A stretch of DNA of 64,000 nt, taken from NCBI GenBank assembly GCA_044892505.1, contig CM097883.1:242358001-242422000 (forward strand), read 5' to 3'. How positions within the stretch are numbered: the stretch's first letter is position 1; each line of letters opens with the position of its first letter. The stretch is from Schmidtea nova. Lineage: Eukaryota. Under the pieces are notes generated by a model. That model had not been told where the DNA came from and did no database searches. It saw nothing but the letters and a program-made list of their open reading frames with translations. A program made the position numbers and the translations under genes. This document shows, piece by piece, positions 1 to 26,066 of this stretch.

Positions 1-792
1 AATTCAATCAGATTTTTTAAATAAAATTCTACATCTAAACTAAATACTAAAAAGGTTGAACCGCCATGTGAGACCCTGAGGCCCCACAACGACGACTCGG
101 ACTCCCTTGCCGCGTGAGAAGCCTAGGAAGTATAACTATATGCATGATTAAAAATTAAATTCAGATTTAGAAAAATTAAAGGTTTCATAAAATTATAATT
201 ACTAAACGATGAAAATCATGGATACATCAAAATAATAAATAATCAAAATAACAAATTACGTTCCGTACTCGAATGTGTGGTTCCTTGTATGAAAATCGGT
301 TTCTCGAAAAGTATCGTTCCGTTAAATAAAATATTTCTTAAAATCAAAGTTTAGTCTTGATTGTAAGTTAAAAGTAAAATGTCTGTTGTTGTGATTTTTG
401 GATCGGTATTTATACTGATCCGTCTGGTTGGATTGACCAATCAGGATCAGGCCGTCCATCAAAGTATTTTTATTATTTTATTCTAACCTAAACATTATTT
501 TGTTTCCTTTTCCGGTTTCTCGCTGGGTGGTCCTGATTTTCCAAGTAATTAATTAATTATTTGCACTATTATTTTATTTAATTCTATCTTTTCTTATTTC
601 AGGCCCCCTTTTGCTGTTGTTTAACGGTTTATTTTCAAAATTTCCTTTTACTGAAAATTTATCAAATATTATTTGTCATTTTATTGTTATTTTTAATTTG
701 TTTTTCTTGTTATTTTTATGTTTATTATTTTCTTTATTGTTTCATGTTTTCGCTCTTTTATTGTGTTTTTAGGTGATTTGGCGGGCCCAACA
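1..792 (-). repeat. 3' LTR, partial (about 1.44 kb predicted to lie upstream of the window)
   Basis: Near-identical to 29015-29806; I counted about 5 substitutions and no net indel by eye. Ends ...GCGGGCCCAACA, which is TGTTGGG on the element strand. Confidence 0.97.
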
Positions 793-993: not shown

Positions 994-1563
994 TTATACA
1001 ATTTGTTCGATCGTCTGGCTCGCTTGGGGTTGAGTTCGGGTCCTCTCGTTGATCATTTGTAGCTCGTAGTGGGTTTGAATGTGGTTGAGATGGCTCCTTA
1101 TTCGTCTTTGAGCTCGGTTATCTCGTCTGGAGGTTTGGTTGTAGATTTTCTGCTTTTGTTTTAGGATTTTTATTCTATATGAGGCAAGTAGGATTGTGAT
1201 TGCGATGATAGTTGTGCTGACTGATAGGATTATGATGATTGCTATGATCCATTTTTCTTGATATTCTATTTCAGCTTGGGATAGGCTTTTTATGGGCTCT
1301 CTACCTTCTTTCAGGATTTTTCGGGTTTATTTTAATTTCAGTTGTTGGTTACCGAAGATTTGTTGGATTTGATGGTCTTGATTGTGGGGGTATTTCTGTC
1401 GGAATTCGTTGATTTCTTTAATTACTTCTTCGATTAGGCTGTCTACTTTTTGGTAGGTTTTGTCGGGTAGAACTCGTAATTGGGTTTCGGTTAGTTGTAG
1501 ATCTTCTTTCTGTAGGGTAATGGTTGTTAACCATAGAAGTGTTGCTATTGCGAGCTTTCTCAT
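994..1563 (-). pseudogene. Small type-I membrane protein (signal peptide, ectodomain, TM, basic tail) split by one in-frame TAA at 1327-1329
   Basis: MRKLAIATLLWLTTITLQ is signal-like. The frame stays open for 110 codons after the TAA and includes WIIAIIIILSVSTTIIAITILLASY; final stop at 994-996. Confidence 0.7.
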
Positions 1564-1638: not shown

Positions 1639-2700
1639 TTATACAAGGGTTTCGTTGGGTTCGTGAAAACTTTCGTCTTGAGGTTCCACCTGATTTATGG
1701 GGAGTGGCATCCATATTACCGTACTCCTCCACATTTCCACTTCCTCTCGGTACGTGTTGGATATCTGGATCTCTTCATCTAATAAGTATTCCAGATAGTT
1801 TGCCTGTTCTGTTAGGGTTTCTATTTGTCTTTCTAGTTCCATTAATCTTTTCTCTCTCTCTTCTTTCTCCATCATTTCCGTTACTGCTGCTGTAATACTT
1901 GTTTCCTTTGTGGGTATTGGTTTTTCTGTCAGCTTTTTCCTCAGTTCTTCGTTTTCTTTTGTCAAATTGGTTATGTTCTCCTCATAACTCTGCCTCGTTT
2001 CTTCCAGTCTTTCTTTAGTTCTTTTTAATTCTATTTTCTTCTGGGTAATCACTCCTTGATATCCATTTATATCTCTTTTCATGTTTTCTTCCTTGTGATT
2101 CCACATTCCGGTCAGCATACCTTTTAATTGTTCTTGATTGGCTAAATCCTCTCCCATTCTTTGTACTTGATAAGTTAATTCTTTAATTTTCTTGGCTTGT
2201 TCCCTGATGAATTGCTGTCTTTTCTTACTCCATACTTTATTTGACGCTTCTTGACTGATCTTTTGCCCTAATTCCTCTTTTAATTCATCGATCTCTTTAA
2301 ACAGTTTCCAATCATCGCTATACGCTGTTCGTTCTATTATCTCCCTTGCTTCCTTGTAAGAGTCTTTTGCCTCTTTCTTCCAATATCTTGCTTGTTCGGT
2401 GATTGACTGGATCTTATGGTCTGTTTTTATCTGTTGTCTATCCCTATCCTCTCTTCGCTCTTTCATCATCTCTTTGTAGTATTCATTTTGTTGCCTTAGC
2501 AGTTTGTAGACTTCTTCTATTTTTTCTCGACTTCTTTGATTCGTTTTCTCGGCTTCTCTTAGTGCTTCGGTTTGTCTTTCCAATTCCTCCTGTTTTCGAT
2601 AATAGGCATGAATCCATATCCCAATCCGCTCCATGTGATTGCTGATCATTTCGTCTTGATGTACGGTTACTTCTTGTAAGGTTACTTCTATATTTCCCAT
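1639..2700 (-). CDS. Accessory coiled-coil protein, 353 aa, unknown function
   Basis: Long ATG ORF, E/K/Q/R-rich heptad-like sequence, same strand and composition as the element. Confidence 0.75.
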   Translation of the reverse strand: MGNIEVTLQEVTVHQDEMISNHMERIGIWIHAYYRKQEELERQTEALREAEKTNQRSREKIEEVYKLLRQQNEYYKEMMKERREDRDRQQIKTDHKIQSITEQARYWKKEAKDSYKEAREIIERTAYSDDWKLFKEIDELKEELGQKISQEASNKVWSKKRQQFIREQAKKIKELTYQVQRMGEDLANQEQLKGMLTGMWNHKEENMKRDINGYQGVITQKKIELKRTKERLEETRQSYEENITNLTKENEELRKKLTEKPIPTKETSITAAVTEMMEKEEREKRLMELERQIETLTEQANYLEYLLDEEIQISNTYREEVEMWRSTVIWMPLPINQVEPQDESFHEPNETLV

Positions 2701-2813: not shown

Positions 2814-4190
2814 TTACGCCAACCATCCTTTTCTATCCGTTTTCTCATGCCTCTCCATTTCTATGTATAGCGTGTCTGCATATAGTCGCTCCCATAGGTT
2901 TTCTTTCCTTATGAACATTGGTTCTCCTACTGCTAGTCCGCATTCTGTTGTTGGTTTTTCACTCGTACTCGTATGTTTGTCTGTCTCGAAGAACTTTTCC
3001 ACTGGTTTTCCTATACTTTTGATTCTTATAATGACTCCTACTTTCAAGGGCCATTCTATTAGGTCATCGTATTCTCCTTTACATAACGAGAAAAATATTG
3101 ACACGTGTGTTCCTTGTCCTCTTCCGTCTTCATTTGGGTATACCTTCAATCTTATTTTGACCCCATTTTTCCATAAATAAAATGGTGGGCTTATTACTGC
3201 TGTTTTAGTCATATTTCGGGCTTCTGTTAGTTTGTCTCTGAAATCTGTTATTTTCCATAGGTAAGGTGCAATTGGTAAGTCCCTTCTTTCGTCAATTTCT
3301 CGTATTAATTGATTATATTGTATCTTCATTCCTTTTCCTAACTCCTCTATGGCTGTTATTTTCTCTTCCATTCTTTCGCGAGTTAGTTCAAACTGCTCTC
3401 TCGTTTCTAGTAATATATTTACCATTATTTTATGTGATTCCACCTCTTTTCCCAGTTTCTGGATTATCTGTTCCGTTTCTTTTGCTGCTTCGTTTGTCAT
3501 CTCCACATGTATTAGTGCTGCTTCTTCCAGATGCTGTTTCATTGTTTGCCGCGTCCGCTTTTCCTTGCATCCTTGTTTGTTATATGGACATTCTCTTGGT
3601 CTTTCGGTACATACTTTCCAATGTTCATGTAACTTTACTTCTTCTGTTATTTCGCAATTGTTTGGACATTTACTTACATATTGTCCGCATACTTTCTCTT
3701 CCGTTATATTCAAGTGTTCTTCTTCAATTTTCCTCCTTGTTTCTTGAGTTTGGCAGTATTCGCATGCGATTTCTTCTTCTTTACATTCGTCCTTGTGTTG
3801 TTCTCTCTTCTTTAGAATTATTGACTGTTGGCACTTCTCGCATTCGGTTCTTTTCTCCTCGCACTTTTCCATATGGTTTTCTAGATTACTTATTTGTCCT
3901 TGCCATGTACAAGGTGTATTTACGCACTCCGTTGTGGTGCTCATAATTTCTCTTTGGGTTGCTTTGTCCGTTCTAGTTTCGTCCAACACTATTCTTCCTT
4001 CTTTACATTCTGGGCATGTTGTTATTCCTGTTGCATCTAATTCTTGTATACACTTCTTACATATTCTACATCCACATATCGTTTGTCTGGGTTCTCGTAA
4101 TAAATTGTTACACTTCCCGCATGTGAGCCTCTTGCTCCATTTTCTGTTTTCTAGTCTCAAAATTTCGATTATTCGTTCTTCTCTGTCCAT
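2814..4190 (-). CDS. TRAF-family protein (RING, TRAF zinc fingers, coiled coil, MATH domain)
   Basis: CGKCNNLLREPRQTICGCRICKKC..CPEC RING; CTWQG..LENH..C and CPYNKQGC fingers; YLWKITDF..SPPFY..G.KIRLKVYPN..G.GQGTHVSIFF..KGEYDDLIEWP MATH signature. Confidence 0.95.
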   Translation of the reverse strand: MDREERIIEILRLENRKWSKRLTCGKCNNLLREPRQTICGCRICKKCIQELDATGITTCPECKEGRIVLDETRTDKATQREIMSTTTECVNTPCTWQGQISNLENHMEKCEEKRTECEKCQQSIILKKREQHKDECKEEEIACEYCQTQETRRKIEEEHLNITEEKVCGQYVSKCPNNCEITEEVKLHEHWKVCTERPRECPYNKQGCKEKRTRQTMKQHLEEAALIHVEMTNEAAKETEQIIQKLGKEVESHKIMVNILLETREQFELTRERMEEKITAIEELGKGMKIQYNQLIREIDERRDLPIAPYLWKITDFRDKLTEARNMTKTAVISPPFYLWKNGVKIRLKVYPNEDGRGQGTHVSIFFSLCKGEYDDLIEWPLKVGVIIRIKSIGKPVEKFFETDKHTSTSEKPTTECGLAVGEPMFIRKENLWERLYADTLYIEMERHEKTDRKGWLA

Positions 4191-4783: not shown

Positions 4784-5236
4784 CTATACCATCATTATCG
4801 TCTTTTCCTCGTATCGTTCTTCATCTTCTATTTGTTTCCAGAATTCTTTACCTTTCGTTCTTCTTTGGAATTCTTTCTGTATCTCTTTTGGTATTTCTAT
4901 TCTTTGTTTCATAATTTTAATATCTGGCCATTGTATGGCTGTCGCTTTGTTTCTCTTTTTGTATCTCCAATATACTATTATGCTTGTCGTCAGTATTCCA
5001 TATGCTATTAATATTCCTATACTAATTAATCCTATTACTGTTTTTCCACGGTTTGTTGCTTTGATTTTATTCTGATTCGCTTTTATCTCATTTTGGGTTT
5101 GAGCCTCTGGCTTCTTCTCCTTCTGCACTTGATTCTTGACTTTGTTCATTACTTCTTGTGTAGACCAATGGCGGTTTAGTAGTTGTTTGACGTCATTTTC
5201 CGTTGTCTGGTTTTCTACGCCTCCTGGTTCGATCTG
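4784..5236 (-). CDS. In-frame continuation of the 1329-aa ORF beyond TAA 5237-5239: second TM anchor and tail
   Basis: I translated 5236-5150 as 29 open codons in frame with ORF 4784-5149. HWSTQEVMNKVK and LISIGILIAYGILTTSIIVYW parallel KWTPEEVIKEVK and LIGLGILTATIPVIIALSAIW in the upstream copy. Confidence 0.8.
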   Translation of the reverse strand, partial: QIEPGGVENQTTENDVKQLLNRHWSTQEVMNKVKNQVQKEKKPEAQTQNEIKANQNKIKATNRGKTVIGLISIGILIAYGILTTSIIVYWRYKKRNKATAIQWPDIKIMKQRIEIPKEIQKEFQRRTKGKEFWKQIEDEERYEEKTIMMV

Positions 5237-8200
5237 TTACTGCAGTTTCTCTGAGATCTGATATAATCCGCATTCTGGTTTTTCTGAACCTTTTCTGGTG
5301 AAGGTACATATCGCGTATGTCCTATTTACTTCCATTTTCTTTAATTCGACTTTTTCTTTATTCTTTATTTCTTTACAGTGGGTTAGGTTGTCTTCTTCCA
5401 CTTCTGGTTTATGTTTTGTCCAACATATTCCTTTAACTGTCTGATCAAGTCCTGTTAATGTCAGAGTTCTTTCTGTTTTAATTAGTTCTTCTTCATCGAA
5501 TTTCAGAATCTCTCCTTTTCGGAATGTCTTGCAATTCTCTGTTCCGGGTTGATCCTCTTGGGTTCCTTTCTCCCATATACATATACTTCCTTCTTCGTTC
5601 ATTTGTATTTCTTGTATTTCGATTTCCTTGTTTGTTCGTGATTCGTCGCTTGTCTGAACTTGGTATTCCTTCCTTGGTTCGTTGTATGTTCCCCAGCATA
5701 GTTTGTTGCTGCTTGTTTTTCTTATTGTTATGGCCATTTGTTCTATTATTATTCCTCTGTCAAAACGTTTGGACATTGCTATTATTAACGCTATGCATAC
5801 GCACTCTTGTTGGGGTGATATTCTTTCTCTCGTGTTATTGGTGCTTCTCTCCCCTTCTCCTGGTTTATCCGTTGTGTTTCTTATCTGAGTTGCTGGTTGA
5901 TCTATTGTGTTTTTGATTTCTTTCTTTGTTGGTTTTACTCTATACCATTCAAGTCTAGGCGTTTCGTATTTTTGGCATACGACTGTCTTAGGTAGCCCCG
6001 ACTTCTTTTCCTTTCCTATTATGCATATCCGATGCATGATTCCTCTATCCATCCCTTCTATTCGTACTATATCCTGGTTGGATTTTCTGATTATGCATTT
6101 TAGTGGGTTATCTTTCCCAATTAGTTCATCCTCTCTATTCCAGCATATTTTCTCGACCTCCTGGACATTTACTATTTTTATCCCTGCTTGTAGGTTTGTT
6201 GCTTCTTCCCTATTGATTAATGTCAATATTATTGTTAGACCCAACCATTTCGAACTCTGCGGTAGGCTTCTGGTTCGCCTTTCATATTTTTTCTCTTCGC
6301 CTTTAATCTCTTTTATTTCCTTGTCTTCGTTGTTTATTCCTAGTTTTCCGCTTTTTGCTTCTTTCTTATTTGGTTCTTCTCGTGCTTTTTCTTCTAGTAT
6401 TTCTACTCCATGGCTTGTATTATCTATATTTAGCCATTGGGTTGTTGATTTTCTGGGACTTATCTTGCGTATCCATATAGCTGATAAGGCGATTATTACT
6501 GGTATGGTTGCTGTTAATATTCCTAAACCAATTAATTCTTTAATTTGTTTATTCTCGTCTGTTTGTATAGATTCGCTTTGGTTGAACATTATTCCGTATT
6601 GTCCTTTTAGTTGTCTCCTTAGTTGTTCGCGTTCCTGCTGCTTTCTTTTGACTTCTTTGATAACTTCTTCCGGTGTCCATTTTGCTTGAGGATCGGTTAT
6701 TATTTTTTCTGCGTCCATTTGTTCATTCGTTTGGCTTAGTTCCTTGAATTCGAGTTTCCTTGCTACTCCTTTTGATGTCGCGTTTGCTGGTGTATAGTAG
6801 GTTTCGCATCTTTCTTGTTGGTTTCCTAGTGCGTCCATTTTTTCTATTGTACATACTTCATACTCGCTATTAAATTGTAGTTTTTCGATCCTGATTTCTT
6901 TATTTGTTTTTCTGCACTCTCTTGATTGTCTTCTTATATGTTTCTGGACTATTATCCAACATATTTCCAATGTTTTATTCTCTATTTTCCATAATGTTAG
7001 AGTTGCTGATGTCTTTCTCTCGGGTTTTGTCGTAACTTCCTGGCTTATTGGTTGTTTATTGTTTTTAAAGGTAGTGGTGTACTTCGGTTTTCCTTTGTTT
7101 CGTTGTTTCCTTTTATTTTTCCGTGTTAACGTTTTGGTTCTTGTTCCGGATGAAGTTATATGTATTCCGCATTCTAGGTCGTTTATCGTTATCTGATCAT
7201 TTTTCTTTACCAAACATATTTCGTAGGTTTGTTTACTTTCTAACCCTTTTATTTGTATCGTTGTTGCTCCTGTGCTTGTTCGGCATTGTGGTGTCATTCT
7301 TTTATTTACTTTCTTTTCGTACTTCCTCCAGCATACTCCTTTCACATTTGGTTCTATCTCTTTTATTTCTAATGTTATGTTTACTTTCCGCTTGATTTGT
7401 TTATTTCTCTTCCTCGTTCTCCTTCTGAACTTTATTACTTCTCCAGGTTGAAATGTTTTACATTTTGTGGTACCTTTCTTGTTTGTCTCTTTTTCTAGTA
7501 GGCATAGTTTGTACGTCTTATCTGCTTTTACTTCGGATACTTTAATTACTTTATTCGTTGTTGGTTTTCGACTTTTCCTTATTTCATTTACGCCGATTTC
7601 CTCGTTATTCCTCGCCCAACATTTTATGTTAGTATTCTGTGTATCTTCTACTTCTGTTATTGTCATAGTTTCAATTTCTATTCCTTCCTCTAATCGTTTT
7701 ATTATTATTAGTATGAGTGCTAAGTATAATACTTCCATTTGGTAAGACACTCTTTCGGTTTCGTTTGTGGCAACTCTTGCTTCGGGCCTCTCTATTGTAA
7801 TTCGTATAGTTGGTGTTGTTTGCTTATCTATTGCCTGGGGTTTTTTGTTTTCTGTTCCCTGTGTCTCTGTTCTTCCACATTTTCCGATGATGTAATCTCC
7901 TTTGGGTGACTGTTGTATTGTCATGGCTGCTTTAGGTGTTTGGTATTTTGCACATGCGATTGTGTTGTGTGATCTTGGATGCTTTTGTTTTCTAACGGTG
8001 CATATTTTGTACCAGGTATTTAGATCTAGGTCGTTGATCTCTATGATTTCTTGCTCGTGTTCTGAGATTCTGCAATCCATCGGACTATTTTGTTCCGTGA
8101 TTTTGTCCTTTTTTGACCAACATACTCGTTCGATTCCTTTTGCGTTTTTTATTTGTATTATTGCCCTTTCTTCACATGTCATTCCTTGACTTGGGTTAAT

Positions 8201-9226
8201 TAACGTTAAAATCACTGTTAATAATAGTAATTCTGGTTTGAAGAATGGTTTTATGGTTGATTTATAACCTGTTCTTTGGGTGTCATTTTTATCTCCTTGG
8301 TCGTTTTTTCCTTGTTCTCCCTCTTCATCTCTTTGTTTTTCGTCTTCATTTTTCTTTTCTTCCTTGTCTCGTTTCTTGTCTTTTCTCTCGTTTTCCTCTT
8401 TATCGGGTGGTTCGTGATCGTTTGAATTTTCTGAGTTGTTATCGTCGTCACTATCTGCATTGTCATCTCCCCCTGGCTCGTCGAAAATGTCGTCCTCGAC
8501 ATTGATTTCTTCTATTAGTTTTGCATACGCTAATGTCGTTAGATTACTTGCCTCGAATTCTTGTGTTTCTACCTGCTCCGGTATTACTTTGTTAGTGGAT
8601 TTATATTCCAAGATTTCCTTTTTGGCCTTGATCCAATTGTTGATGTATGTCTTCATCAATTCTTTCCATTTGCCTGTGTATTTTTCTTCTTTCGGGCTGG
8701 TTGTGATTTTTAGATCCTTTCTTTCCATAAACATCTTCAATATCTCTGGCCATTTATATGTTATTAGGGCACTTCTTATACACCAGTTTTGGTTATGTTC
8801 TGTAAACTCATTAATCCTGAATGCTAGTTCGTTGGTATTCGGATTTATCCACGTAAGTATTGATTCTGTTAGTTCAACATTGTGCATCATTGTCAATACA
8901 CTGGGTTTCTTAATTGTTTTGGTTAGGTATTCTATTTCTTCCTGGTTTGAGACGGTTTTAATGAAATTGACCATTTCCCAATTGTGTGTTAACAATGCTA
9001 CATCCAATATTGAATTATCTTTATCTGTTTTACCTGTAAGTCCTGCACCTGCTTTATATAGTTCTTCCAACACCTTTGTTTTTGTTTTGGCCCTTGCTGC
9101 AAATATCATAAGTGTATCTCCTTTCTCGTCTATCATATTCATGTTGCTTCCGCAGTTTAGCATTACTCTTGCAATTTCCATTACTTTTCTGTCTTTGCCA
9201 TTTCGTAAAGCTCTATGTATGGGCAT
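5237..9226 (-). CDS. Ankyrin repeats, helical domain, acidic linker, then two signal-peptide-led blocks of FN3-like modules (about 7) with a TM
   Basis: MPIHRAL, KGDTLMIFAA and NSILDVAL are ankyrin-like. Repeated CW..IxxLxxxxxYxIC..C modules. Hydrophobic segments LLLLTVILTLIN, LGLTIILTLIN and a TM near 6470-6535. Confidence 0.85.
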   Translation of the reverse strand: MPIHRALRNGKDRKVMEIARVMLNCGSNMNMIDEKGDTLMIFAARAKTKTKVLEELYKAGAGLTGKTDKDNSILDVALLTHNWEMVNFIKTVSNQEEIEYLTKTIKKPSVLTMMHNVELTESILTWINPNTNELAFRINEFTEHNQNWCIRSALITYKWPEILKMFMERKDLKITTSPKEEKYTGKWKELMKTYINNWIKAKKEILEYKSTNKVIPEQVETQEFEASNLTTLAYAKLIEEINVEDDIFDEPGGDDNADSDDDNNSENSNDHEPPDKEENERKDKKRDKEEKKNEDEKQRDEEGEQGKNDQGDKNDTQRTGYKSTIKPFFKPELLLLTVILTLINPSQGMTCEERAIIQIKNAKGIERVCWSKKDKITEQNSPMDCRISEHEQEIIEINDLDLNTWYKICTVRKQKHPRSHNTIACAKYQTPKAAMTIQQSPKGDYIIGKCGRTETQGTENKKPQAIDKQTTPTIRITIERPEARVATNETERVSYQMEVLYLALILIIIKRLEEGIEIETMTITEVEDTQNTNIKCWARNNEEIGVNEIRKSRKPTTNKVIKVSEVKADKTYKLCLLEKETNKKGTTKCKTFQPGEVIKFRRRTRKRNKQIKRKVNITLEIKEIEPNVKGVCWRKYEKKVNKRMTPQCRTSTGATTIQIKGLESKQTYEICLVKKNDQITINDLECGIHITSSGTRTKTLTRKNKRKQRNKGKPKYTTTFKNNKQPISQEVTTKPERKTSATLTLWKIENKTLEICWIIVQKHIRRQSRECRKTNKEIRIEKLQFNSEYEVCTIEKMDALGNQQERCETYYTPANATSKGVARKLEFKELSQTNEQMDAEKIITDPQAKWTPEEVIKEVKRKQQEREQLRRQLKGQYGIMFNQSESIQTDENKQIKELIGLGILTATIPVIIALSAIWIRKISPRKSTTQWLNIDNTSHGVEILEEKAREEPNKKEAKSGKLGINNEDKEIKEIKGEEKKYERRTRSLPQSSKWLGLTIILTLINREEATNLQAGIKIVNVQEVEKICWNREDELIGKDNPLKCIIRKSNQDIVRIEGMDRGIMHRICIIGKEKKSGLPKTVVCQKYETPRLEWYRVKPTKKEIKNTIDQPATQIRNTTDKPGEGERSTNNTRERISPQQECVCIALIIAMSKRFDRGIIIEQMAITIRKTSSNKLCWGTYNEPRKEYQVQTSDESRTNKEIEIQEIQMNEEGSICIWEKGTQEDQPGTENCKTFRKGEILKFDEEELIKTERTLTLTGLDQTVKGICWTKHKPEVEEDNLTHCKEIKNKEKVELKKMEVNRTYAICTFTRKGSEKPECGLYQISEKLQ

Positions 9227-12200
9227 TATTCCGTCCTTTGGTAGTAAAAAATGTTACTGGCATCTCCTTTTTTATAGTCGTTATGTCGTTACCATTGTAT
9301 GTTCCTTTTGCGTATGCGTGTACTTTTTCAACTAATGCGCCGAGTATTTCCAGTGCATGTTTACTATTCTCGAATTCCGGTAACAATTCTTTTGCTTTTT
9401 CTTGTATCGCATCTAGTCTAGCTTGGTATGGTGCTTCTGCTTTGAAGAGTGGTGTGAGTTTCCTGTTACTTTCTCTTTCTTTTTTCTCCAAAACCTGTTT
9501 GCATTTTTCGGGGTGGTTTAGGATTTTTACTAGTTCATCATACTCATTTACTATCGTCTGGTATTTCTCGTTAAAATTGTTTATGTCTTTGTATGTTATT
9601 AGTTTATCAAGTGGTTTCGCACACCATTTCCTAATCTTGTTGAATAAAGCCTCCTTCTCTTTATCGAATTTGTGTTCTTCTTCATTCTTTGTGATGTTTA
9701 TGTTCCCTCTGTCTAATAAGGTTAGTAATGTCTTTTGATCGCAAGTAAATTTCAAAAGATATCTTAACAGCGCGTTTTGTCCTTCGCTGTATACTTCGTT
9801 TATGTCTAAGACCCATGTATCATCTTCTGGTCGTTTCCATTTGATTAACTTACGGATCGTGTTGCATTTACCAATTTTTATTGCTTCTTTGATAATGTCT
9901 CCTTTTATTAATTCGTCTATTTCCCACGTGGAGTTAGCTATTATGTATTTCAGCATTGGTTGGTGAGAACTCCATATTACGTGATTTAGCACTGTTTTGT
10001 CTTCTCTATCTCGTTCTGTCCAACTGAAATGAGCCTTTATCAACAGATCTATCATTTCTTTATCTGCTTGGTGGATTGCGGCTGTCATTATTGGAGTTTC
10101 TTGTTCACGATTCCCCACGTCCAAGTTTTGGTTTGTTTCTTTTGCCATTTTTAAGAATTCTTTTGCTCTTTCAATGTTTTTACACTCTATCGCATTGTGT
10201 AAGGCTGGTTGTCCTCCTACATCTTTCAATAAGAGTATTTCAGGGATTTTTTCCAATAATTCAGAAATAATTGGTTCGGTTGGTAATCCTTGTGCGTAAC
10301 GGCTAATTATGTGTCTGATGTCCCTTGATATGCCTACTTCGTCTTTAACATGCCATCTTCCCATTATTTCTCTCGCCTTCAATATGATCTCTTTATTTCT
10401 GATTTCCTTTTGCCTTACTTCCGCTTTGTCGTCTTCGCTTGTGTTTGCTCTGAGCATATTTATCCTGGCTGTTTGTGATCTGGTTATTATTCGATTCTCT
10501 GGTGTTGTAGTTATTGTTTTAGGCACCTTCTTACATCTGCAAGTGTTTACATATATGGGTCGTATTAACGGTCGATTTATTAGCTTAACTTTGACATTAT
10601 TGTCCTTTTTGTATATAATTTCATAAGGTCCTCTTCCAGGTCTTTGGAGTTTCTTAACCGTTCCTGGTATTATTTCGGGAGTTTCTATTATCACCCAATC
10701 TCCTGGTTTTAGGTCGTTCGCTTTAACATTTTTCTTCTGGTCGTGTAAATCCTTATAACTTTCCTGATAAAATTTAATGTTAAGTTCTGCCGTCTTCCAT
10801 ATTTCCTGCATTCTTTCTTTGAATTTGGTTACGTAGTCGTCGTCTTCCATATATTGCGATAATGGTGGTTGATACTCTAAATCTATGGGCATGTTGCATT
10901 CTCTTCCATACATAAGTTGAAACGGGCTTAGTTTTGTTGCTGCATGTATCGACATGCGGTATGCCATTAAACATAATTTTATGTATTCGTCCCAATCGGT
11001 TTGATGTCTGCTGACGTAATTTGATAACATTCTAATCAATGTACCGTTGAATCTCTCTGTTTGTCCATTCGTTTGCGGGTGATATGGTGAAGTTCTCAAT
11101 TTTGCTATTCTGAAATAGTTGGTCACCTCGTTCAGTAACTCACTCATAAAGTTGGTTCCTTGGTCTGTGAGAATTTGTTTTGGAGTTCCGTATCTGCAAC
11201 ATATTTCTTCCACTAGAATTTTTGCTACGGTTTTTGCTTTTTGATCTTGCATGGCAAATGCTTCCGGGAATTTCGTCAGATAATCCGTTATTACCAATAT
11301 ATAAATATTTCCGTTTAAACTTTCTGGTAATGGTCCTATTACGTCCATTGCTATAGTTGTCATTGGCTCTGCTGGTATTGGCATTGGTTGTAGTGGGTTT
11401 TTCCATTTCTTCCCACTATCCTTTCTGGTTGCACAGGTTAGGCAATTTTTAATCCATTCTTTAATATCTTCTTCCATTGTTCGCCAATAATATTTTTGTC
11501 TCATACGATTTATTGTCTTTTTCTCTGACATATGCCCTCCTAATTTCCCATCATGGTATTGGATCATTATCTCTTTCCTTCTGTTTTCCGGTAAGCACAT
11601 CAATTTCTTTACCCCGTCTTGTATTAACAACCATTCTTTGCTTAATATATAGCGATGTTGATATTTTCCTATATGTTCCTTTAATTCCTTATTATCCTTG
11701 AATACCTCCATATTTCGAGATGTTAGGAACTCTATGATTTGTCCTAATTCTTTGTCTTCCTGCTGATCTCTCTTAAGCTCGCTAAAATCTAAATCTTCTG
11801 CTATTAATACACAAATTCGTTGTACATCAGGATCGGTTAGTTCCGGGAATGTCAGTCTTGACATACAGTCTGCATTCGCATTTGCTCTTCCTGATTTAAA
11901 TTTTATATCTGGTGAGTATTCCTGTAACTGCATTGCCCATCGCATTAATCTACTGGATGTTTCTTTGTGCTGTCCTAACCATACAAGCGGTTGGTGATCT
12001 GTTGTTATGCAGATGATGTGTCCCCATAATAAATATTTAAAATGTTTAATCGCTAATATAATCGCTAATGCTTCCCGTTCTGTCACTGAATAATTTTTCT
12101 CATGCTTTTTGAATGTCCGGCTATAATATCCGATTACACGTTCTTTTCCTTCATCATCGTATTGTCCTAATACTGCTCCCGCTGCATATCCGCTTGCATC

Positions 12201-15200
12201 TGTTGCAAGTAGGAATGGCTTCTTAAAGTCTGGGTGTACCAATATGGGTGCGGTTATCAGTTTATCTCTCAACGTTTCAAAGGCTGTTTGTTGTTCATCC
12301 CCCCATATGAATGATACATCTTTCTTTACCAGCTCTTGTATAGGTTTTGCGATTCCGGCGTAATCTTTAATAAACTTTCTATAGTATCCACATAGTCTGA
12401 GAAATTCTTGTATTTGGGTTATTGTTTTTGGTACTGGGCATTCTTTTACTTTGTCGATATTTCTAGGATCCGGTTCTTTTCCTTTTGCTGACACTATATA
12501 TCCTAAAAATGTAACCTTTTCTTTTGCCCAATCGCATTTGGATGGCTTGAGTTTTAACTTCCATTGTCTAAGCCTAACGAATACATCTCGAATATCCTGT
12601 ATGTGTTGTTCTAATGTACTAGAATAAATTAATAAATCGTCGATGTAGACCATGCACTGCTTTATTCCATGGGTGACGAAATTCATGCATCTCTGAAATG
12701 ATGCTGGTGCGTTTGTTAATCCAAATGGCATTTTTCGGAATTGATATAGGTCTCTACCGATGGTAAAGGCAGTTTTCTCTTTATCTTCTTCCTTCATTTT
12801 TATTTGCCAATATCCGCTTTTCAGATCTAACGACGTAAAATATGCTGCTCCTTGTAGTGTTAGTAGCATTTCGTTGATGTCCGGTAATGGATAAGTATCC
12901 CGTTTGGTCACGGTATTCAATCTTCGATAATCTATGCAAAATCTCTGTGTTCCGTCTTTCTTCTTTACCATTACCACTGGAAATTGCCAGGGTGAACAAC
13001 TTGGTTCGATTACTTCCGCATCCAACATTTTCTTCACTTCTGCTTCTGCTACTGCTTTCTGTGCTTCTGCTAATTTGTATGGTCTTAATGCAATTGGTGT
13101 TTCGTCTGTTAATGGTATTGTATGTAGTGTGACATCACATGTTCCTAGATCTAAATCGGATGCTGCAAATATATCCTTATACTCTATCATGAGTTTTTCT
13201 AACTGCTTCCTTTGATCCTCATTTAATAATTCACTATCAATATTCCAGGTTGGTTCTTTATCTTTCTCTGCTCCTTCTATTGGTAGTTCGATATCCATCA
13301 TTGGGGTTAATTTACCTAATCTTTCGTTTTCGTAGATTATTTTGTCCTCTTCATCGAAGTTTACTACGTTTATTGGGATTTCTCCATCGTCATTTATGTT
13401 GACTAGTCCTCTTGCCATTGGTAATGCTTTTCTTTTCTCGAATCTTTTGCTTGGTTCGAAAATCATATCCCCCTGGATTGTCGGATCTATTTTTACATAA
13501 CATATTTTTTCCTTTCTTGCGGGTATTATCATTTGCTTTGAACTTGTCACTTTGGCTTCTATTGCGCATATTTGTCCTGTGCGATCTTTCAGTCTCATTG
13601 TTCCGAGATCGATTACAATCTCTTTAAATAATGCTGGCATCAAATCTGTTCCGATAATGCAAGGTACGCTTAATGCTGGTATGACGGCTACGTACGTATC
13701 GATTTCTGTATTTAAGTGGCGTATTTTTACCCACCATCTTCCTGCTACTTCTACGATTTCTTTGCTACATGCAATTACGTGGACGTTTGTCCTTTCTATT
13801 TCCCGTCTTTGCTCTTGTGGTATCCATTTGATATCGATGGCGGAAATATTTGCTCCAGTGTCGATCATTGCTTCGATTTCTCTTCCGTTAATCTCTATTG
13901 TCGTGGTTAATACTGGACCTGTGTTTGATGACATTACTGCGATCGTGTGTGTATCTCCTTGTGGATCTACGCTTCTACATCTTCTCATTTTATAATCTTC
14001 TGGTATCATGGGGTATACATTTGTCATTGGCATCATTTGCATCGTGCTATTTTTTCCTCCTTGTAGTGGTTCTTGATACATTGTTGGTGGAGGTGCGTAA
14101 CATTTCCATGCGTCGGCTGGATTCTTTTCGATGTACTGTGGTGCTTGGTTCTTATACACTTGTCCTCCTTTATAGTCGTCATCGTCATCATCGTCGTCAC
14201 TCGAATCATTTTGGGTTTTATATCCTTTCATCCTCTCCCATAAACCTTTTCTTTCTCTCTTGAGCTGTTGTCTTGCTTGTTCGTCGTTCATTATCTTTTT
14301 AAATTTGCGTCCTACTTCTTCATCTGTTCCCTTCATTTTTGCTAATATCTTTAGGAGTCTTTTTATTCGGTGGATATCTTTTGAGTGACCGTGTAACACC
14401 ATCGTTTTCGCAAGGAATGGTAAAAATCCTACTACCATTTTCCAATTCACTTTCTTTTCTCTCTTGTAGATATCGAAACACGCTAGCATTTGCGTTATTA
14501 TCACTCTGACGATTTGTATTATTAATATAACCCCTAGTATTCCAGCCATCATTTGTCCGAATATCAGGAATCTTCCCCACATTGCTTTCATCATATTTTC
14601 TGTGGCTTTCTTGAAATGTGCTGGTGACAACAATAGTTCATAATTCGGTCCTTCTCGATAATCCGTTCCTCCCGTTATCGTTACGATATTTAACAGTAAT
14701 GCTTCTCTTCTCGCCGGGAATAATATATTCTGCCTTGCTGCTTCTAAATCTTTTGGGCTATATATTCCGTTGTTTGAGACATCTACGTCGCTGAATTGCC
14801 TATCCTTTGACAACTGCATTAGTTCGAATTCTCTTGGTGCTATTACTTCGGCTCTTCCTGGGAACATAACCCATTTACCATCTGGCTTCTGATAAAGCGG
14901 TCCGTATGCATTACTACAGTTGAATGGATTTGGTTCAAACCCTGGTGGATTGATGATTCTCGTCACCGGTTGAACGTATCGTACTTTTCCTTTGTAATCG
15001 ATTTCTAACTCATTTGTACAGGTTCCAGGTTTCAACTGTGTTGTTGCTGCTAGTGACGCGTGTGTCTTTTCGCAAATGTATACATACATTGCTTCTCCAA
15101 CCACTCTTCCGAAATGTCCTTCTCTCAGTGGTAATAATGGCATCGCGCTATCTGGATTCGTAATCGCTACGGCCAACTTTGTCTTTAATATTTCTCGATT

Positions 15201-18200
15201 CAGTATACAATCATTATTTATCAGATCGTAATACACTTTTTGTAATGAGGCTTGTCCTCTATGGAATAAGAAATCCATTTTATTATTCACATACAGGTGT
15301 AGTTTGATATCCATTGTGTCGATTTTGGGTTTCGCATTTGGTACTTCTTGTTTTGACACATATATTCCTGGGTAATTCGTTTCGTATACCGTTGTACTAC
15401 ACTTAAGGGTTGCTTTCCCTTTTATGAACCTCATTCCCACATCCTGATTTGTGGTTATCAATACTGTTGGTGTGGCTCTCATCTCTATCCGTTTTTCCCT
15501 ATGATCTGGTTTCAATTGTCTTTTATTCTCCAACGCTTCCTTGAGATGCTTTGCTCTAGCTTTGTCGTCATCGTCTTCTTCCTGGAATGTCTTTCCTTGA
15601 ATTTCGTCGAACTGTGCTCCTTGTAGCAGTTGTAATTGACATTCGTTCACCTTTGGTTTGTATACTAATGTTGACATTCCCGTTTGACACATGCTCCTGT
15701 CGATTTTACACATGGATAACGTTTTCATTTCTCCCGTTGTTGGTTCGAAGAATGCTTCATAGCTTTTTAATTCGACTATATACGTATCCATCACCACTAA
15801 GTTAGTTGCGGGTGTTCCGAATATCGGGTAGGTTTCTCCTTGACAATATCCTTCTCCTCCCGTAATCCTTCCTGCTACATAGTATGTTTGTTGCAGCATC
15901 ATTCCTGGTTTTCCTCTTATCTTGATTTTATCTCTTGTTGTTACTTCTCCATGTTTAAACAATGCTTCGCAGTCTTCTCCTTGTAACACGATTGGTTCTC
16001 TTTCCGTTCCTGGCATGACAATTGCTGAATAATGTCCTCTCCCGCAGTAGAATGCGAATCTCGTCTTCTGCACCTTACATTCATTCACCATTGTCTTTAT
16101 GAGTTCTGCTTCTTGATACACGTGGTACCATTGTTCCTTTTTAATCTTTTGTAACTCTACTGGAGTTGCATCTTTGCATTGCTCCGTACCTCTCAATGAA
16201 TACTTTTCTCCTAACTTCATTTGGTCGCAATCAAACACTTCGAATGCTGTTGCGCTATCGGTGCTAATCATCCATATCAACATCATCATTATTATAGAAC
16301 TCAAATTCATTGATGACTTCGCGTTTCCTGTTCCTGCTTGTTCTTTTTCTAACTCTTCCAATATTTTTTCGAATTTCTTTTTCATATTCTTTGCTTGCGT
16401 TTTCTTCTGGTTATTTTTTATAAATGTTTCCCATCCTCCTTTGTTAATGACGTATGGTTCTATTTCTCTGGCTATAATTTTTGCGGTATTTTTTATATGT
16501 CTCTCTAATGCAGTGGGTTTTGGTCGACCTCTACTCAGTGTCAACAGATTGTAGATCGTGTATGCAATGGCTATTATGTATTTATTATCCGTTTCCGCTC
16601 CTTCTGTCAGTTTCTTTATTAACGTAGTGGTTCCTTGCCAGTCTAAATGATTTGATTTCGTCTTTTCTTTTATGAATTCCGGTAAGATGGGTGCGATTGC
16701 GCTGTGTAGTGACTTCGCCTTTTCGCTTATCTCAGTTATCCGCCAGTATTTTCTTAATTCCGGATCAATTATTGCCAATATTTCCATTATTGTTTTCGAT
16801 ATCCATTCCTCCCCTTGACATATTGGTGTTGTCTCTTTTTCTTTTATCTCCGCAATTTTATTTAGTTTCCTTAAGCATAATTCCCATTGGTCTTGTCTCT
16901 TTTCATCCTTATTTCTGATGACTACATTCGCTGGGTCTGTCTTGGGTCTACCTCGAGGTCGTCTATCCATTCCTGTACCTGTTTCCACAAACCTTGTTGC
17001 CCGTCCGGTTTCCTCGGTGACATCTCTTGGTTCGTTAGCTCTTTCTTCTAACCATCTTTCCATTTCCTGGGTTAATTGTACATTTTCGGCATATGCTCCT
17101 CTTGTTTCATCTTCTGTCAAATCGTTTACTTCTTCTATTATTATCTCTTGTTCGACTTCTGTTTCTCCGGTGTTGGTTACTTGTATTGTCGTAGGTAATT
17201 CTTGTATTCTTTCGAAAATGTTATCGTCTTTTTCCTTTGTTAATTCGGTTAGCTCTTCTATCATATCGTCACTATCCGTTAAAATTTCGTCTACGTCGTA
17301 TGGTTGTGGTGGAGTACTTTCTCTGGTTCCTCTGGGTGTTGTCTCAGATCGTCTCGAACTTGTCCCTGGCGTTAGTACTGATTTCATCGGGCTCGGCGTA
17401 CTTATACTTCCGTGTGGTTTATGGTTTTCTTCTTTACGTTTCAATGGTTGCCCCGCTATTGCTTCCACTGTCAAGGTATTCATGAGATCTAATTGTGCTG
17501 GCGTTATTCCGATTTCCAAACTGTTATCTAATGATCGTCCTTGGTGTTGTAAATGGAATGGTGGTTCGTATCTCAATTTCTTTTTAATATCTCGAATTTT
17601 TTCTGCTATTCCTACCCAAAGCTCTTCCTTATCCTTGTTTGGATATATTATTCTTAAATGTACTTTTTGTGGAATTTCTTGCGAGAATTCTTGATTTCTC
17701 CATTTCCTAATTACGTGGTCTAGTTGTTCCGGGCACCACTCGTTAACTCTTTTATATTCCGCGATTGCTTTTGCTACTTTACGTAAACATGTTATATCCT
17801 CTCCATTTACCACGAAAAAATCTGCGAGACCCTTTATTACTTTTCTCTTACCGTGCGCATTAGTTTTTAATATTTCGACAAATTCTTCCGTTTTTTGCTT
17901 TTCCCTTTCTAACCACATAGCCGCGGTTTCTGGTCCATCTAGGTCTATCGGTGTAGCTTTCCTTGTCACCATGCAAACCCTTCCCATTTCTGGTTCGCAG
18001 TCATCTTCCATTCCTCTTTCATATTCTTCTTCATATTCTCCTTCTTTTGGTTCCCAACATTTTCCTTTCTTGTTCCATTGTTTTTCTACGGGTGTTCGTA
18101 TTCGTCTGTTGAGGTTGAGTTCTTCTAATACATTTTCCCACTCTGGCCAAATTCGCCAATTTCGATAAATTTCTACTATTTGTTGTAATTTGCGCACAAC

Positions 18201-22381: not shown

Positions 22382-22934
22382 TGTAGTGGCACGGTTCATT
22401 CATATATTAAATTACAAAAAATTAAAAATTGTTTTGTAAAAAACTTGTTATTTAAAAATTGTAGTTTAAAAATTAATTTTATAAAAAGTTGTTTAAAACT
22501 ATCAAAAGTTGTAAATAAAAATAAATATTTGTTATCTTAATTTAAAAGTGTTTTCTTAAATGGCTTCCAGTATTTCATTCATTAATATTGAATATTTGAC
22601 ATTTAATCACTGCAAACAATCGGATTATACCAATAGCGAAGAAGTCATTCAATTACAATTCAATGATCTCTTTGGATTACTAAGAACTGAGGCCAAGCTT
22701 AATAATAATCTTTCATCAAAGGACGATTTTGAAAGGCTATTCAAAACATGGATTCCATCTGTTGATAATCAGTATGAACAGACAATTAATGAGCCATTCC
22801 ATGATGCGATTTTATTCCACAGTACTCAAAGTCGACTCAGTAGAAGTTTAACAAATTTAAAGATAAAAACAGATACTGACTCAAACATAATGCTAGAAGG
22901 TTTCGAGAAGGCGCACTACGCCCGAAACACTTCA
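22382..22934 (+). repeat. 5' LTR of the nested element (553 bp)
   Basis: Starts TGTAGTG, ends CACTTCA; its last 147 bp (22788-22934) repeat at 25585-25731 with one mismatch seen. Confidence 0.88.
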
Positions 22935-24323
22935 TTGGTGTCAGAAGTGAAAGAAAGCCACACCTCCTGGCTAAGAAAAATTGTAAGTAATTTTTATATG
23001 AGTGTAATTTTTGCCGCTCCATTGGTTCCCCCTCGCATTAGCCCAGTCCATTTAAGGGAAAACGGGACAACCACTTTCATCAATAGCCAACACACCTTTT
23101 TATCTCCTCACACTTTTATCCCTCATAAATCAGATCACGCCATCCACTTCCGTTTCGGTATGAGATTTTTCAGTGTCCGCATCTCCACACCATCTTACGA
23201 TGCATTTTCACAGGCAGTTTGCCAAATTTTTAAACAACATTCATATGATTTTTACGTCACACAAAACGGCATTATATTAAATTCTCTGTCTGACATCTCA
23301 GAGACCGTCATCGTACAAGTTAACCTAAGAGCACGGGGAGGCATGAAAGACGGGGACACGGATACCAACGACATTGAAATTCACCCACACCCATTCACGG
23401 CTCCTTCGTTCTTTCTGGACGCAGATAAATCCCCAAAAGCGTGGCTCATTTTGGTCAACATCGCACTCGAAGAAAGTGGACGTTTCACGCCCTACAAAAA
23501 ATTCTCCGCTTTAATTATATCTCTCCCAGCGGAAATCCTATCAAAAATAGCGCATCTTACCGAACAACTTAGTAACAGCACAAACCCCTATCTGGCACTT
23601 AAATCAGCCATCACCGAACTTTATCTAGAACCTGTGAAAGACGTTTTTGAACGTGTTTTCAAGGAGCAATCATTGGGATCAGACCTCCCTTCGGTTTTTT
23701 TGAAACGCTCCATAGAAAGCCTCGAACGCCTCAAAGTAGGCATCACTAAGGATGATACAGTACTCCGTCATTCTTTCCTTTCCGCACTTCCAATCCAGAC
23801 GAGAGCGATTCTTTCAGTTGCGGAAACAACCTCTTTAGACAAATTAGCGGAAATGGCCGATAAGATCTCTGCGATCTCCTTAGCACCTAAACCTTGTCTT
23901 TCCTTAACTACAGAAGCACATCCACCAGTTACATCACACTCAACGAGCACTCCCTCGACCATGATCGAAGAGAGGCTCACGGCAGCCCTCGAAAACTTAG
24001 GTAACAGACTGAGCCGTTTGGAGGACCACCAGACCAAATGCCGCAGGAAACGTTTTTTTAACAGCAAATCTCCTAAGAGAACTCCATCCGCAGGTGGTAA
24101 ACTAATTTGTCGCCTACACTTAAAATTCCAGAAAAACGCGAGATGGTGCGCAATCGGCTGCGCTTGGCGCAATCGTTCGAACGACTGCAAGAACTCAGAT
24201 GTGTGGATATACCATGACAGGTTTCGCACTGACGCAAGACGTTGCCTTCAAGGTTGCAAACATTTCACAAATTTTGCGAACCAATCATTAACCACCGAAG
24301 AATTCAACTCCTCAAAAAACTGA
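22560..24323 (+). CDS. gag: Nested Gag with an N-terminal ubiquitin-like domain ending LRARGG
   Basis: SPKAW..KKFSAL..NPYLALKSAI..FLSALP..LDKLAEMADKI; two H..F..AR.C..GC motifs; A AAA AAC slippery heptamer at 24314-24320 just before the stop. Confidence 0.88.
   Translation: MASSISFINIEYLTFNHCKQSDYTNSEEVIQLQFNDLFGLLRTEAKLNNNLSSKDDFERLFKTWIPSVDNQYEQTINEPFHDAILFHSTQSRLSRSLTNLKIKTDTDSNIMLEGFEKAHYARNTSLVSEVKESHTSWLRKIVSNFYMSVIFAAPLVPPRISPVHLRENGTTTFINSQHTFLSPHTFIPHKSDHAIHFRFGMRFFSVRISTPSYDAFSQAVCQIFKQHSYDFYVTQNGIILNSLSDISETVIVQVNLRARGGMKDGDTDTNDIEIHPHPFTAPSFFLDADKSPKAWLILVNIALEESGRFTPYKKFSALIISLPAEILSKIAHLTEQLSNSTNPYLALKSAITELYLEPVKDVFERVFKEQSLGSDLPSVFLKRSIESLERLKVGITKDDTVLRHSFLSALPIQTRAILSVAETTSLDKLAEMADKISAISLAPKPCLSLTTEAHPPVTSHSTSTPSTMIEERLTAALENLGNRLSRLEDHQTKCRRKRFFNSKSPKRTPSAGGKLICRLHLKFQKNARWCAIGCAWRNRSNDCKNSDVWIYHDRFRTDARRCLQGCKHFTNFANQSLTTEEFNSSKN
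22936..22949 (+). promoter_or_regulatory. PBS of the nested element (tRNA-Leu-like)
   Basis: TGGTGTCAGAAGTG one nt after the LTR end; matches the known tRNA-Leu PBS TGGTGTCAGAAGTGGGAT. Confidence 0.9.
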
Positions 24324-24439
24324 TCACCCCGTTTCTTCTTGCGGCAGAAGTAGGCGGTAATCATCCACACAATTTTTTTCTCAAACTCTTCTCACCTAGT
24401 TTTTCTTTTCTCTCATCTCCTTCTCTCAATTCTCCCGAA

Positions 24440-25589: not shown

Positions 25590-25731
25590 GCCATTCCATG
25601 ATGCGATTTTATTCCACAGTACTCAAAGTCGACTCAGTAGAAGTTTAACAAATTTAAAGATAAAAACAGATACTGACTCAAACATAATGCTAGAAGGTTT
25701 CGAGAAGGCGCAATACGCCCGAAACACTTCA
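25585..25731 (+). repeat. 3' LTR remnant of the nested element
   Basis: 147-bp copy of 22788-22934, followed by TSD CCCTC. Confidence 0.9.
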
Positions 25732-25772
25732 CCCTCTATTACTATTTATCCGGATATCTCTATAGTTCACTA

Positions 25773-26027
25773 TGGCTCTTCTGGCCTCAATTTAATATCT
25801 CAACTGGCTCTATTGGCCTTAATTAACGTCTCAACTGGCTCTATTGGCCTCAATTTTATCTCTCATACGGCTCTATTGGCCTCAATTTAATCTCTTAAAT
25901 GGCTCTATTGGCCTCAATTTAATCTCTCAAACGGCTCTATAGGCCTCAATTTAATCTCTCATATGGCTCTATTGGCCTCAATTTAATCTCTCATATGGCT
26001 CTATTGGCCTCAATTTAATCTCTCCAT
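25773..26027. repeat. Tandem array, about 8 copies of a 32-bp unit (TGGCTCTATTGGCCTCAATTTAATCTCTCATA)
   Basis: Read directly; adjacent copies with no unique spacers. Confidence 0.92.
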
Positions 26028-26066
26028 AACGCCTAGCTAGGTCATTCAATATGGCTCATTGGCCTC

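Follow-up and report, generated by a model that had tools for sequence, protein, structure and literature searches.

In planarians the gypsy-like elements Burro and GYPSM1 measure about 30 kb and encode polyproteins of 4,873 and 5,140 amino acids (PMC6431247). Errantiviruses with the gene order GAG-ENV-POL and an Env of the herpes simplex virus/glycoprotein B (HSV/gB) type have been reported from Platyhelminthes, Nematoda and Bryozoa (PMC13524379). We analyzed a window of 64,000 nucleotides of DNA from Schmidtea nova (contig CM097883.1 of assembly GCA_044892505.1, forward-strand positions 242,358,001 to 242,422,000), the first 29.8 kb of which are taken up by one long terminal repeat (LTR) element of the Ty3/gypsy class lying on the minus strand. 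We call the element a Burro-like giant, a label that rests on the match to the published description and not on a named Burro sequence. Besides its fusogen it carries a cassette (4784-8240, minus strand) for a predicted second surface protein built from modules that resemble fibronectin type III (FN3) domains. Most long-tailed relatives in the clade to which the element belongs carry a fast-evolving surface protein in this position, and in the window element it is duplicated.

With Burro the element shares Gag CCHC knuckles, an Env of the mononegavirus type in frame between gag and pol, ankyrin repeats, and MATH/TRAF and RING cargo, all of which are named in the description of Burro (PMC6431247). 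Including a nested insertion of 3.35 kb its visible part measures at least 29.8 kb. Searches with Pfam gave the gene order gag-env-pol-ankyrin: the CCHC knuckles (PF00098, E = 3.5e-10) form two stretches, retrotrans_gag (PF03732, E = 4e-4) stays under its cut-off, the Monjiviricetes-type fusogen domain PF24664 (E = 6.5e-70) lies in a single open reading frame (ORF) between zf-CCHC (aa 467) and the protease (aa 2646), and the ankyrin run is recognized as Ank_2 (E = 6.8e-10). MATH_2 (E = 3.6e-20) was found in a separate ORF downstream of the polyprotein, and a RING (E = 8e-11) was found without a BIR match. The element differs from Burro as described in that its polyprotein is not an uninterrupted chain of about 5,000 amino acids, this copy having three frames of together about 5,700 codons (4208 + 1338 + 150) that are broken twice, by a frameshift and a stop; in that the TRAF ORF lies downstream instead of upstream; and in that Pfam gave no confirmation here of a BIR, BCL2-like, SUMO-like or dUTPase-like domain, the published domain calls having been made with HHpred (PMC6431247). 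The SUMO-like region gave a weak match to Ubiquitin_4 (E = 0.08), and the BCL2-like and dUTPase-like stretches matched no Pfam family.

The description of Burro mentions neither an FN3 domain nor a second membrane protein, and the word "fibronectin" does not occur in it (PMC6431247); for the window element both FN3-like domains and a second membrane protein are predicted. The errantiviruses have the same gene order and the same fusogen class as the window element, the gB-type assignment of the latter's fusogen resting on its match to PF24664; their survey covers three ORFs, and its main text contains none of the terms fibronectin, FN3, Ig-like, Burro and ankyrin (PMC13524379). No description of FN3 cargo or of a second surface protein in LTR elements was found in the full-text literature searched, a scope that excludes key Burro papers and supplements. 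The statement in the original prediction that no LTR element with this cargo was known thus holds for the literature searched, but it does not hold for the sequence databases, in which relatives of the element carry similar cargo (see below). The second membrane protein of the clade has apparently gone undescribed so far.

The cassette is read from a frame of 1338 amino acids (5237-9253), which continues in the same frame for another 150 amino acids (4784-5236) behind TAA 5237-5239. Two homologous blocks with four and three Cys-patterned modules, respectively, had been predicted at these coordinates, together with a second transmembrane segment beyond the in-frame TAA (CAG TAA CAG), and both were borne out. 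Blocks 1 and 2 are 31% identical over 363 columns (E = 1.8e-44), with a local score of 459 as compared with 65 ± 11 (maximum 114) in 300 shuffles, and the tail behind the TAA is homologous to the block 1 stalk and anchor (score 108 vs. 40 ± 7; 0 of 2000 shuffles). The duplication must be old because no extended DNA similarity is left between the blocks. The seven modules (M1 to M7 in Table 1) are about 80 amino acids long each; 17 of their 21 pairs beat all of 500 shuffles, and for the other four pairs 2, 2, 7 and 15 shuffles scored at or above the real value. By these scores M1 pairs with M5, M2 with M6, and M3 and M4 with M7. One tryptophan and three cysteines, in the order C, W, C, C, are invariant in all seven (alignment A1). 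The linkers 7016-7150 and 7388-7441 of block 1 are strongly basic (net charge +13 and +9), and the linker 5474-5512 of block 2 is acidic (-3).

It is very improbable that the cassette is a captured host gene which rides along and decays, being of no use to the element, and we regard this possibility as largely refuted. A frameshift upstream, a TAA inside and the failure to find homologues would fit such a decay, but both blocks are open and have kept their Cys, Trp, signals and anchors despite divergence to about 31% identity, base and third-position composition of the cassette is like that of the element's other genes, and the layout recurs across the clade.

Of six hydrophobic stretches in the cassette two are anchors of the 19-residue type, two are signal-like 11-mers (H1 and H4) and two are internal 11-mers (H2 and H5), each block having one of every kind and its anchor being followed by basic residues. 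Signal, ectodomain, anchor and basic residues C-terminal to the anchor, as assigned from hydropathy and charge, are the layout of a type I membrane protein; H2 and H5 come in addition to what one crossing per protein needs. That the cassette encodes a surface glycoprotein made via internal signals, as had been proposed, is supported by this layout, by its presence clade-wide and by the PDZ-type end usual there. The 11 N-glycosylation sequons are about as many as expected from the composition and were not used as evidence. Strict furin sites (R-x-K/R-R) are absent from the cassette.

According to structure prediction the modules form FN3-like beta-sandwiches, which may lack one strand. AlphaFold2 was run on M3 with the alignment of all seven modules, and the other six follow by homology. 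The model (predicted local distance difference test, pLDDT, see Table 1; predicted template-modeling score, pTM, 0.68) is all-beta with six strands as assigned by DSSP. When compared by VIA-align with 48,161 solved chains, it matched LAR FN5 best (Z 7.5, root-mean-square deviation 2.6, 73 aligned); among the top 50 chains (Z 6.4-7.5) 37 are titled FN3 or fibronectin, a further 12 we take to be FN3-type and one not, and cytokine-receptor FN3 domains are among the tied matches. The tryptophan of strand B that belongs to the FN3 signature is present in 7 of 7 modules and the tyrosine before strand F in 5 of 7. Language-model features yielded FN3 in 10 of 10 rows at 0.85-0.88, which served as a lead only; these features and Pfam matches below cut-off support the FN3-like nature weakly. 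The superposition of the M3 beta-sandwich on FN3 domains agrees with what the original prediction had expected from AlphaFold, while the Foldseek half of that check returned nothing at E ≤ 0.001 and the model covers one of the seven modules.

Relatives of the element were collected by a pol search that gave 92 long proteins and 120 of 144 shorter ones, together 212, of which 200 have an integrase match; a named Burro record is not among the 212. In a quick integrase tree of the window and the best 70 of these 200 matches the window groups with 24 rows (Shimodaira-Hasegawa-like approximate likelihood ratio test, SH-aLRT, 96). The rows of this clade that are long enough carry the same fusogen ahead of pol, and in 20 of the 24 at least 150 amino acids follow the integrase. 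Signal, ectodomain and anchor, in the polyprotein frame and at its end, were recognized by eye in 15 of these 20 long-tailed rows, and two more (P0020 and P0093) show signal and ectodomain without a clear anchor; the rows being related, these counts are not independent. A fixed hydropathy threshold (at least two hydrophobic stretches) is passed by 11 of 24 clade rows as compared with 9 of 176 rows outside, some of the latter being ordinary env fusions (P0047 with PF12259). The three rows nearest to the window (P0099, P0103 and P0108) are too short to reveal a cassette.

In six relatives the ectodomain consists of three Cys-patterned modules. The model of this family (pLDDT 67) has three tandem FN3-like domains, for which Foldseek gave E = 1.8e-7 to fibronectin III 10-12 and 214 matches with E ≤ 0.001, and VIA-align gave Z up to 8.4, with FN3 mixed with other immunoglobulin (Ig)-like chains. 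FN3-like Leu...Tyr motifs were seen, by eye only, in P0010, P0021, P0022, P0100, P0093, P0094 and P0096. P0020 has an Ig domain (PF13927, E = 4e-8, aa 2481-2554) in place of the FN3-like modules, behind the post-integrase signal.

In the usual scheme of PDZ-binding motif classes, 10 of the 15 anchored proteins end in a class I motif as compared with 5 of 176 rows outside the clade, and 12 of the 15 end in Val as compared with 7 of 176; the motif occurs in 5 and the Val in 6 of 7 sub-lineages. The p-values of these tests are overstated because the rows are related. The last residues of the window element's tail, -MMV, fall outside class I but retain the Val, and this clade-typical residue identifies the region past the TAA as the ancestral C-terminus. 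Between P0013 and P0014 the identities of integrase, fusogen and ectodomain are 93, 93 and 57%, and between P0013 and P0016 they are 84, 68 and 23%. The ectodomains thus diverge far faster than integrase or fusogen, which, together with the Ig swap in P0020, is as expected of a host-facing protein.

Herpesvirus gB works with receptor-binding partners and paramyxovirus F with an attachment protein; viral decoy receptors with FN3 or Ig domains are likewise known. The window element resembles such two-component entry systems in having a fusogen and a separate beta-sandwich surface protein, a likeness by analogy only, there being no match with E ≤ 0.001 in the viral fold library BFVD. We tentatively propose, with a confidence somewhat short of even, that the product of the cassette is a second membrane glycoprotein of the element and serves as the attachment or cell-contact partner of the fusogen. 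In an intact element a single polyprotein would be threaded repeatedly through the membrane of the endoplasmic reticulum (ER) by internal signals, an arrangement that the fusogen has in common with the cassette. After gag, fusogen and pol-ankyrin the internal signal would reopen translocation, and signal peptidase would free a type I protein in which FN3-like modules with disulfides follow one another. Transfer would stop at the anchor, and the second signal would repeat the process for block 2. The C-terminal cytoplasmic tail may bind host PDZ scaffolds, by which the protein would be directed to cell junctions or budding sites. At these sites, and on particles, the FN3-like arm would bind the host-cell surface and act as partner of the gB-type fusogen, being made in step with Gag and Env. 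An attachment or cell-contact function is favored because of the fixed position, the in-frame co-synthesis with Gag and Env, and the fast divergence.

Several findings weigh against this proposal. Some class III fusogens, such as rhabdovirus G, bind receptors alone, so that a partner is not required. The layout is missing in P0011 and P0102 and ambiguous in P0108, and three of the 15 anchored proteins (P0017, P0018 and P0098) bear an unrelated Cys-rich ectodomain. As to the fold, the Pfam cut-offs for FN3 were not reached by the modules (Fn3_Dep-1_1st, E = 0.0028, 18 vs. 26 bits; Fn3_ELFN, E = 0.097), PF00041 was not matched, and Foldseek with the single module M3 found nothing at E ≤ 0.001 in PDB or BFVD. 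A Z of 7.5 is within the range (<8) in which, by the tool's own warning, a match may reflect a common arrangement, and six strands were assigned in the model where FN3 has seven (A, B, C, C', E, F, G). Common descent of the cargo is unsupported because the modules in the window have no detectable sequence similarity to the ectodomains of the relatives: profile A1 gave at best E = 0.81 against the 92 polyproteins and E = 0.047 against 17 ectodomains of relatives, and hhalign with the three modules of the six-member family gave a probability of at most 0.22%. Global identities of 18-42% between window and relatives' ectodomains are alignment noise and were not used. Further afield, no homologue of the cassette was found at E ≤ 0.001 among 1.84 billion representatives, none of 5,654 candidates of 553-1761 amino acids was one, and profile A1 had a single match among PDB sequences (E = 7.2).

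The topology is a further point on this side. With three hydrophobic segments per block the ectodomain can be wholly luminal only if neither H2 nor H5 spans the membrane, but on a rough scale the score of H2 is that of an anchor. Alternatively, H2 and H5 could act as true stop-transfer anchors or as signals of their own, in which case M1 and M5 would be small anchored proteins, and M2-M4 and M6-M7 would be lumenal only if made from spliced subgenomic RNAs. H2 starts with Met and is strongly hydrophobic, and both H2 and H5 are followed by KR. The accessory ORFs start (at about 2703, 4190 and 27241 on the minus strand) a few bases behind AG acceptor-like sites, and the top-scoring acceptor of a scan lies just before the ATG of the coiled-coil ORF. 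H5, however, has no Met and is marginal, none of the 25 best acceptors of the scan is near H1, H2, H4 or H5, and the relatives show one signal and one anchor. We consider this topology and mode of expression unlikely.

A host-modulating surface protein or decoy fits nearly as well as an attachment protein. On the infected cell, or shed from it, such a protein would mimic FN3 receptors or adhesion proteins of the host and act outside of entry; it would prevent superinfection, weaken immune or death signaling or alter cell adhesion, much as the TRAF, RING and ankyrin cargo may do. We take it as a serious possibility, without expecting it to be the right one. In its favor, the same element has a full TRAF-like ORF and an ORF for an inhibitor of apoptosis (IAP)-type RING, the tied fold matches include FN3 domains of cytokine receptors, and the PDZ tail, the fast divergence and the domain swapping fit equally well. 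Burro1 B-IAP is reported to protect planarian stem cells from apoptosis (Lee et al. 2026, as cited in PMC13465017). In favor of attachment instead, the protein keeps one position across the clade, last in the polyprotein and in the same frame as Gag and Env, whereas the other host-modulating genes of this element are separate ORFs, and sequence searches revealed no similarity to any particular host receptor.

If the attachment reading is extended to the whole clade, its members could have a two-component entry system in which a gB-type fusogen is combined with a separate glycoprotein for receptor binding. The latter would be exchangeable between folds (FN3 arrays, Ig or others), would be released from the C-terminal end of the polyprotein that also contains the fusogen, and would be guided by a PDZ-binding tail. 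In the window element this glycoprotein would be duplicated; one copy would be anchored, and a stop codon would set the balance between a secreted and an anchored form of the other. We consider this extension doubtful.

That the cassette stands last in the polyprotein, as proposed, is deduced from the relatives, since in this copy the frame of the cassette is offset from that of ORF1 (overlap 9213-9253). In P0015 and P0095 integrase, ankyrins, signal, ectodomain and anchor follow each other unbroken in one frame and in the same order as in the window, so that the claim stands for these relatives and not for the copy itself. We read the frameshift as a lesion of this copy or as an assembly error. 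Programmed -1 frameshifting was rejected since the frame offset and the register of the slippery site do not fit and the break is inside the ankyrin run; no RNA structure above that of shuffles was found at 9213-9253.

The TAA at 5237-5239 is more likely a lesion of this copy, too. The alternative is that it has been kept on purpose, block 2 being mainly secreted and an anchored form arising by low-level readthrough, or that secreted forms are kept with or without readthrough. The same would apply to a small accessory gene (994-1563), which repeats the layout of the cassette: signal, ectodomain, in-frame TAA and anchor (its part past the stop matched no Pfam family at cut-off). Both in-frame stops in the element thus sit between an ectodomain and its anchor, where the stalk windows make up 4-5% of the stop-mutable sites over all coding frames and 8-10% outside ORF1, and the second case was not used in picking the finding. 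ORF1 is free of internal stops over its 4208 codons, where 1.8-2.4 are expected from the divergence of the LTRs (P0 0.09-0.17). The first TAA is followed by CAG, a codon that makes up 5-6% of all codons here, and the tail is intact up to its clade-typical Val. The 150 open codons past the TAA (0 of 20000 shuffles) are equally expected for a recent lesion.

On the other side, the 5 differences in 792 nucleotides of LTR translate into 2.4-3.2 nonsense changes (range 0.8-7.5) by neutral decay over 17 kb, and the copy is otherwise damaged, by the frameshift and by the nested insertion at 22382-25731. No stable RNA structure was found at either TAA (z -1.05 to +1.01 vs. shuffles), the sequence around one stop is unlike that around the other, and the complete CARYYA motif is missing. 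UAA is the least leaky of the stop codons. The corresponding place in block 1 is free of stops, in 15 relatives the anchor is encoded without an intervening stop, although single-ORF records cannot show stops, and lesions in non-essential 3' genes are heritable. Apart from the CAG there is no cis evidence for the readthrough that the original prediction had considered, and neutral decay suffices to explain the stop; owing to the second, similar stop in the 994-1563 gene we rate a kept stop as doubtful rather than as dismissed. Two other explanations were rejected: a non-standard code with TAA as a sense codon, because ORF1 has no in-frame TAA in its 4208 codons, and a short intron removing the first TAA (a GTAA overlaps it), because the sequence is again homologous to block 1 from about 8 residues past the stop.

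Accessory surface proteins are known from other elements and viruses. sORF2 of the MDG1-group retrotransposons of Drosophila is also an accessory transmembrane protein of an LTR element and acts in cell-to-cell transmission; it is short and fusogen-like and replaces Env, whereas the cargo in the window is large, multi-domain and FN3-like and accompanies Env (PMC11952523). The planarian nidovirus PSCNV is a flatworm virus whose polyprotein has captured ankyrin and fibronectin-named modules; these modules are of type II (FN2), which is a different fold, and the virus is an RNA virus, whereas the modules in the window are FN3-like (PMC6211748).

A conserved, swappable second surface protein would, if true, give Burro-like elements an organization known from larger enveloped viruses. 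In retroviruses and env-bearing retrotransposons, binding and fusion are generally thought to be combined in one Env. The finding would annotate a part of the Burro-type polyprotein that was left blank in the published domain lists, and it would offer a handle on whether Burro-like elements move between cells and on the host surface molecule that they touch. Should the protein be a decoy, the host-manipulating cargo would extend from death signaling to the cell surface.

Table 1. Coordinates of the cassette and of other parts of the Burro-like element within the 64,000-nucleotide window
Feature	Positions	Strand	Basis
3' LTR, visible part	1-792	-	5 differences in 792 nt vs. 29015-29806; LTR cut by the window edge
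Small accessory gene: signal-like start, ectodomain, TAA 1327-1329, anchor, basic tail with terminal Val	994-1563	-	Sequence layout
Open tail: stalk, anchor 2 (about 4970-5038; hydrophobic stretch 4973-5029), cytoplasmic tail with terminal Val	4784-5236	-	Homology to block 1 stalk and anchor
In-frame TAA between M7 and block 2 stalk/anchor	5237-5239	-	Context CAG TAA CAG ATC
M7	5252-5482	-	M3/M7 z 13.5; Fn3_ELFN E = 0.097
M6	5513-5755	-	Module alignment and pairwise scores
H5, internal hydrophobic segment, paralogue of H2, marginal	5756-5809	-	Rough insertion energy +1.9
M5	5951-6202	-	Module alignment and pairwise scores
H4, block 2 internal signal-peptide-like segment	6203-6253	-	Aligns with H1; net +5 ahead
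Transmembrane anchor 1	6476-6532	-	19-aa hydropathy 2.28; net +4 after, -2 before
M4, extra module of block 1	6788-7018	-	M3/M4 z 12.8; M4/M7 z 10.4
M3, predicted FN3-like beta-sandwich, the one module folded	7151-7393	-	AlphaFold2 pLDDT 79.6; VIA-align Z 7.5
M2, three Cys, paralogue of M6	7442-7678	-	M2/M6 z 16.6
H2, internal hydrophobic segment, Met-initiated, then KR	7682-7738	-	Hydropathy 3.45; rough insertion energy -1.1
M1, paralogue of M5	7928-8182	-	M1/M5 z 25.6; alignment A1
H1, block 1 internal signal-peptide-like segment	8183-8239	-	Hydropathy 3.15 over 11 aa; net +3 ahead
Frameshift between gag-env-pol frame and cassette frame, within the ankyrin run, at a T homopolymer	9213-9253	-	Overlap of frames that differ
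ORF1, 4208 aa	9213-21839	-	Pfam: Gag CCHC knuckles, fusogen, protease, reverse transcriptase, RNase H, integrase, ankyrins, in that order
Fusion glycoprotein with own internal signal and anchor, between gag and pol	14460-16304	-	PF24664 E = 6.5e-70; hydropathy
5' LTR, matching part	29015-29806	-	Pairs with 1-792

Among the relatives, P0011, P0013, P0014, P0015, P0016, P0017, P0021 and P0022 have two or three aspartic-protease-like domains, the extra ones being located after the integrase and ahead of the surface protein. In P0010 the ankyrins (aa 2122-2332) are found between fusogen and protease, not after the integrase. The C-terminus of P0020 is short and hydrophobic, lacks a cytoplasmic tail and is possibly a signal of the glycosylphosphatidylinositol (GPI) type. 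The best integrase match of P0093 is labeled as a protein from a Turicibacter metagenome-assembled genome; this record probably stems from a eukaryotic retroelement contig within a bacterial bin.

Downstream of the polyprotein the window element has a full-length TRAF-like ORF (2814-4190, minus strand) with RING, zinc fingers, coiled coil and MATH, and a coiled-coil ORF (1639-2700, minus strand) ending in ETLV, a class I PDZ-type motif; in all, three proteins of the element end in Val. The IAP-type RING ORF without a BIR match (26780-27241, minus strand) is in the leader/LTR region, which also contains two adjoining tandem arrays at 25772-26303 (32 nt x 7.9 and 29 nt x 8.1). The nested insertion at 22382-25731 is a Ty3/gypsy element on the plus strand with a 5-bp target duplication (CCCTC) and a primer-binding-like site after its 5' LTR; it has suffered an internal deletion from the reverse transcriptase into its 3' LTR. 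Outside the Burro-like element a Penelope-like reverse transcriptase/endonuclease frame and a hAT-like transposase fragment were seen by eye at 62607-63998 and 56006-56914, both on the minus strand.

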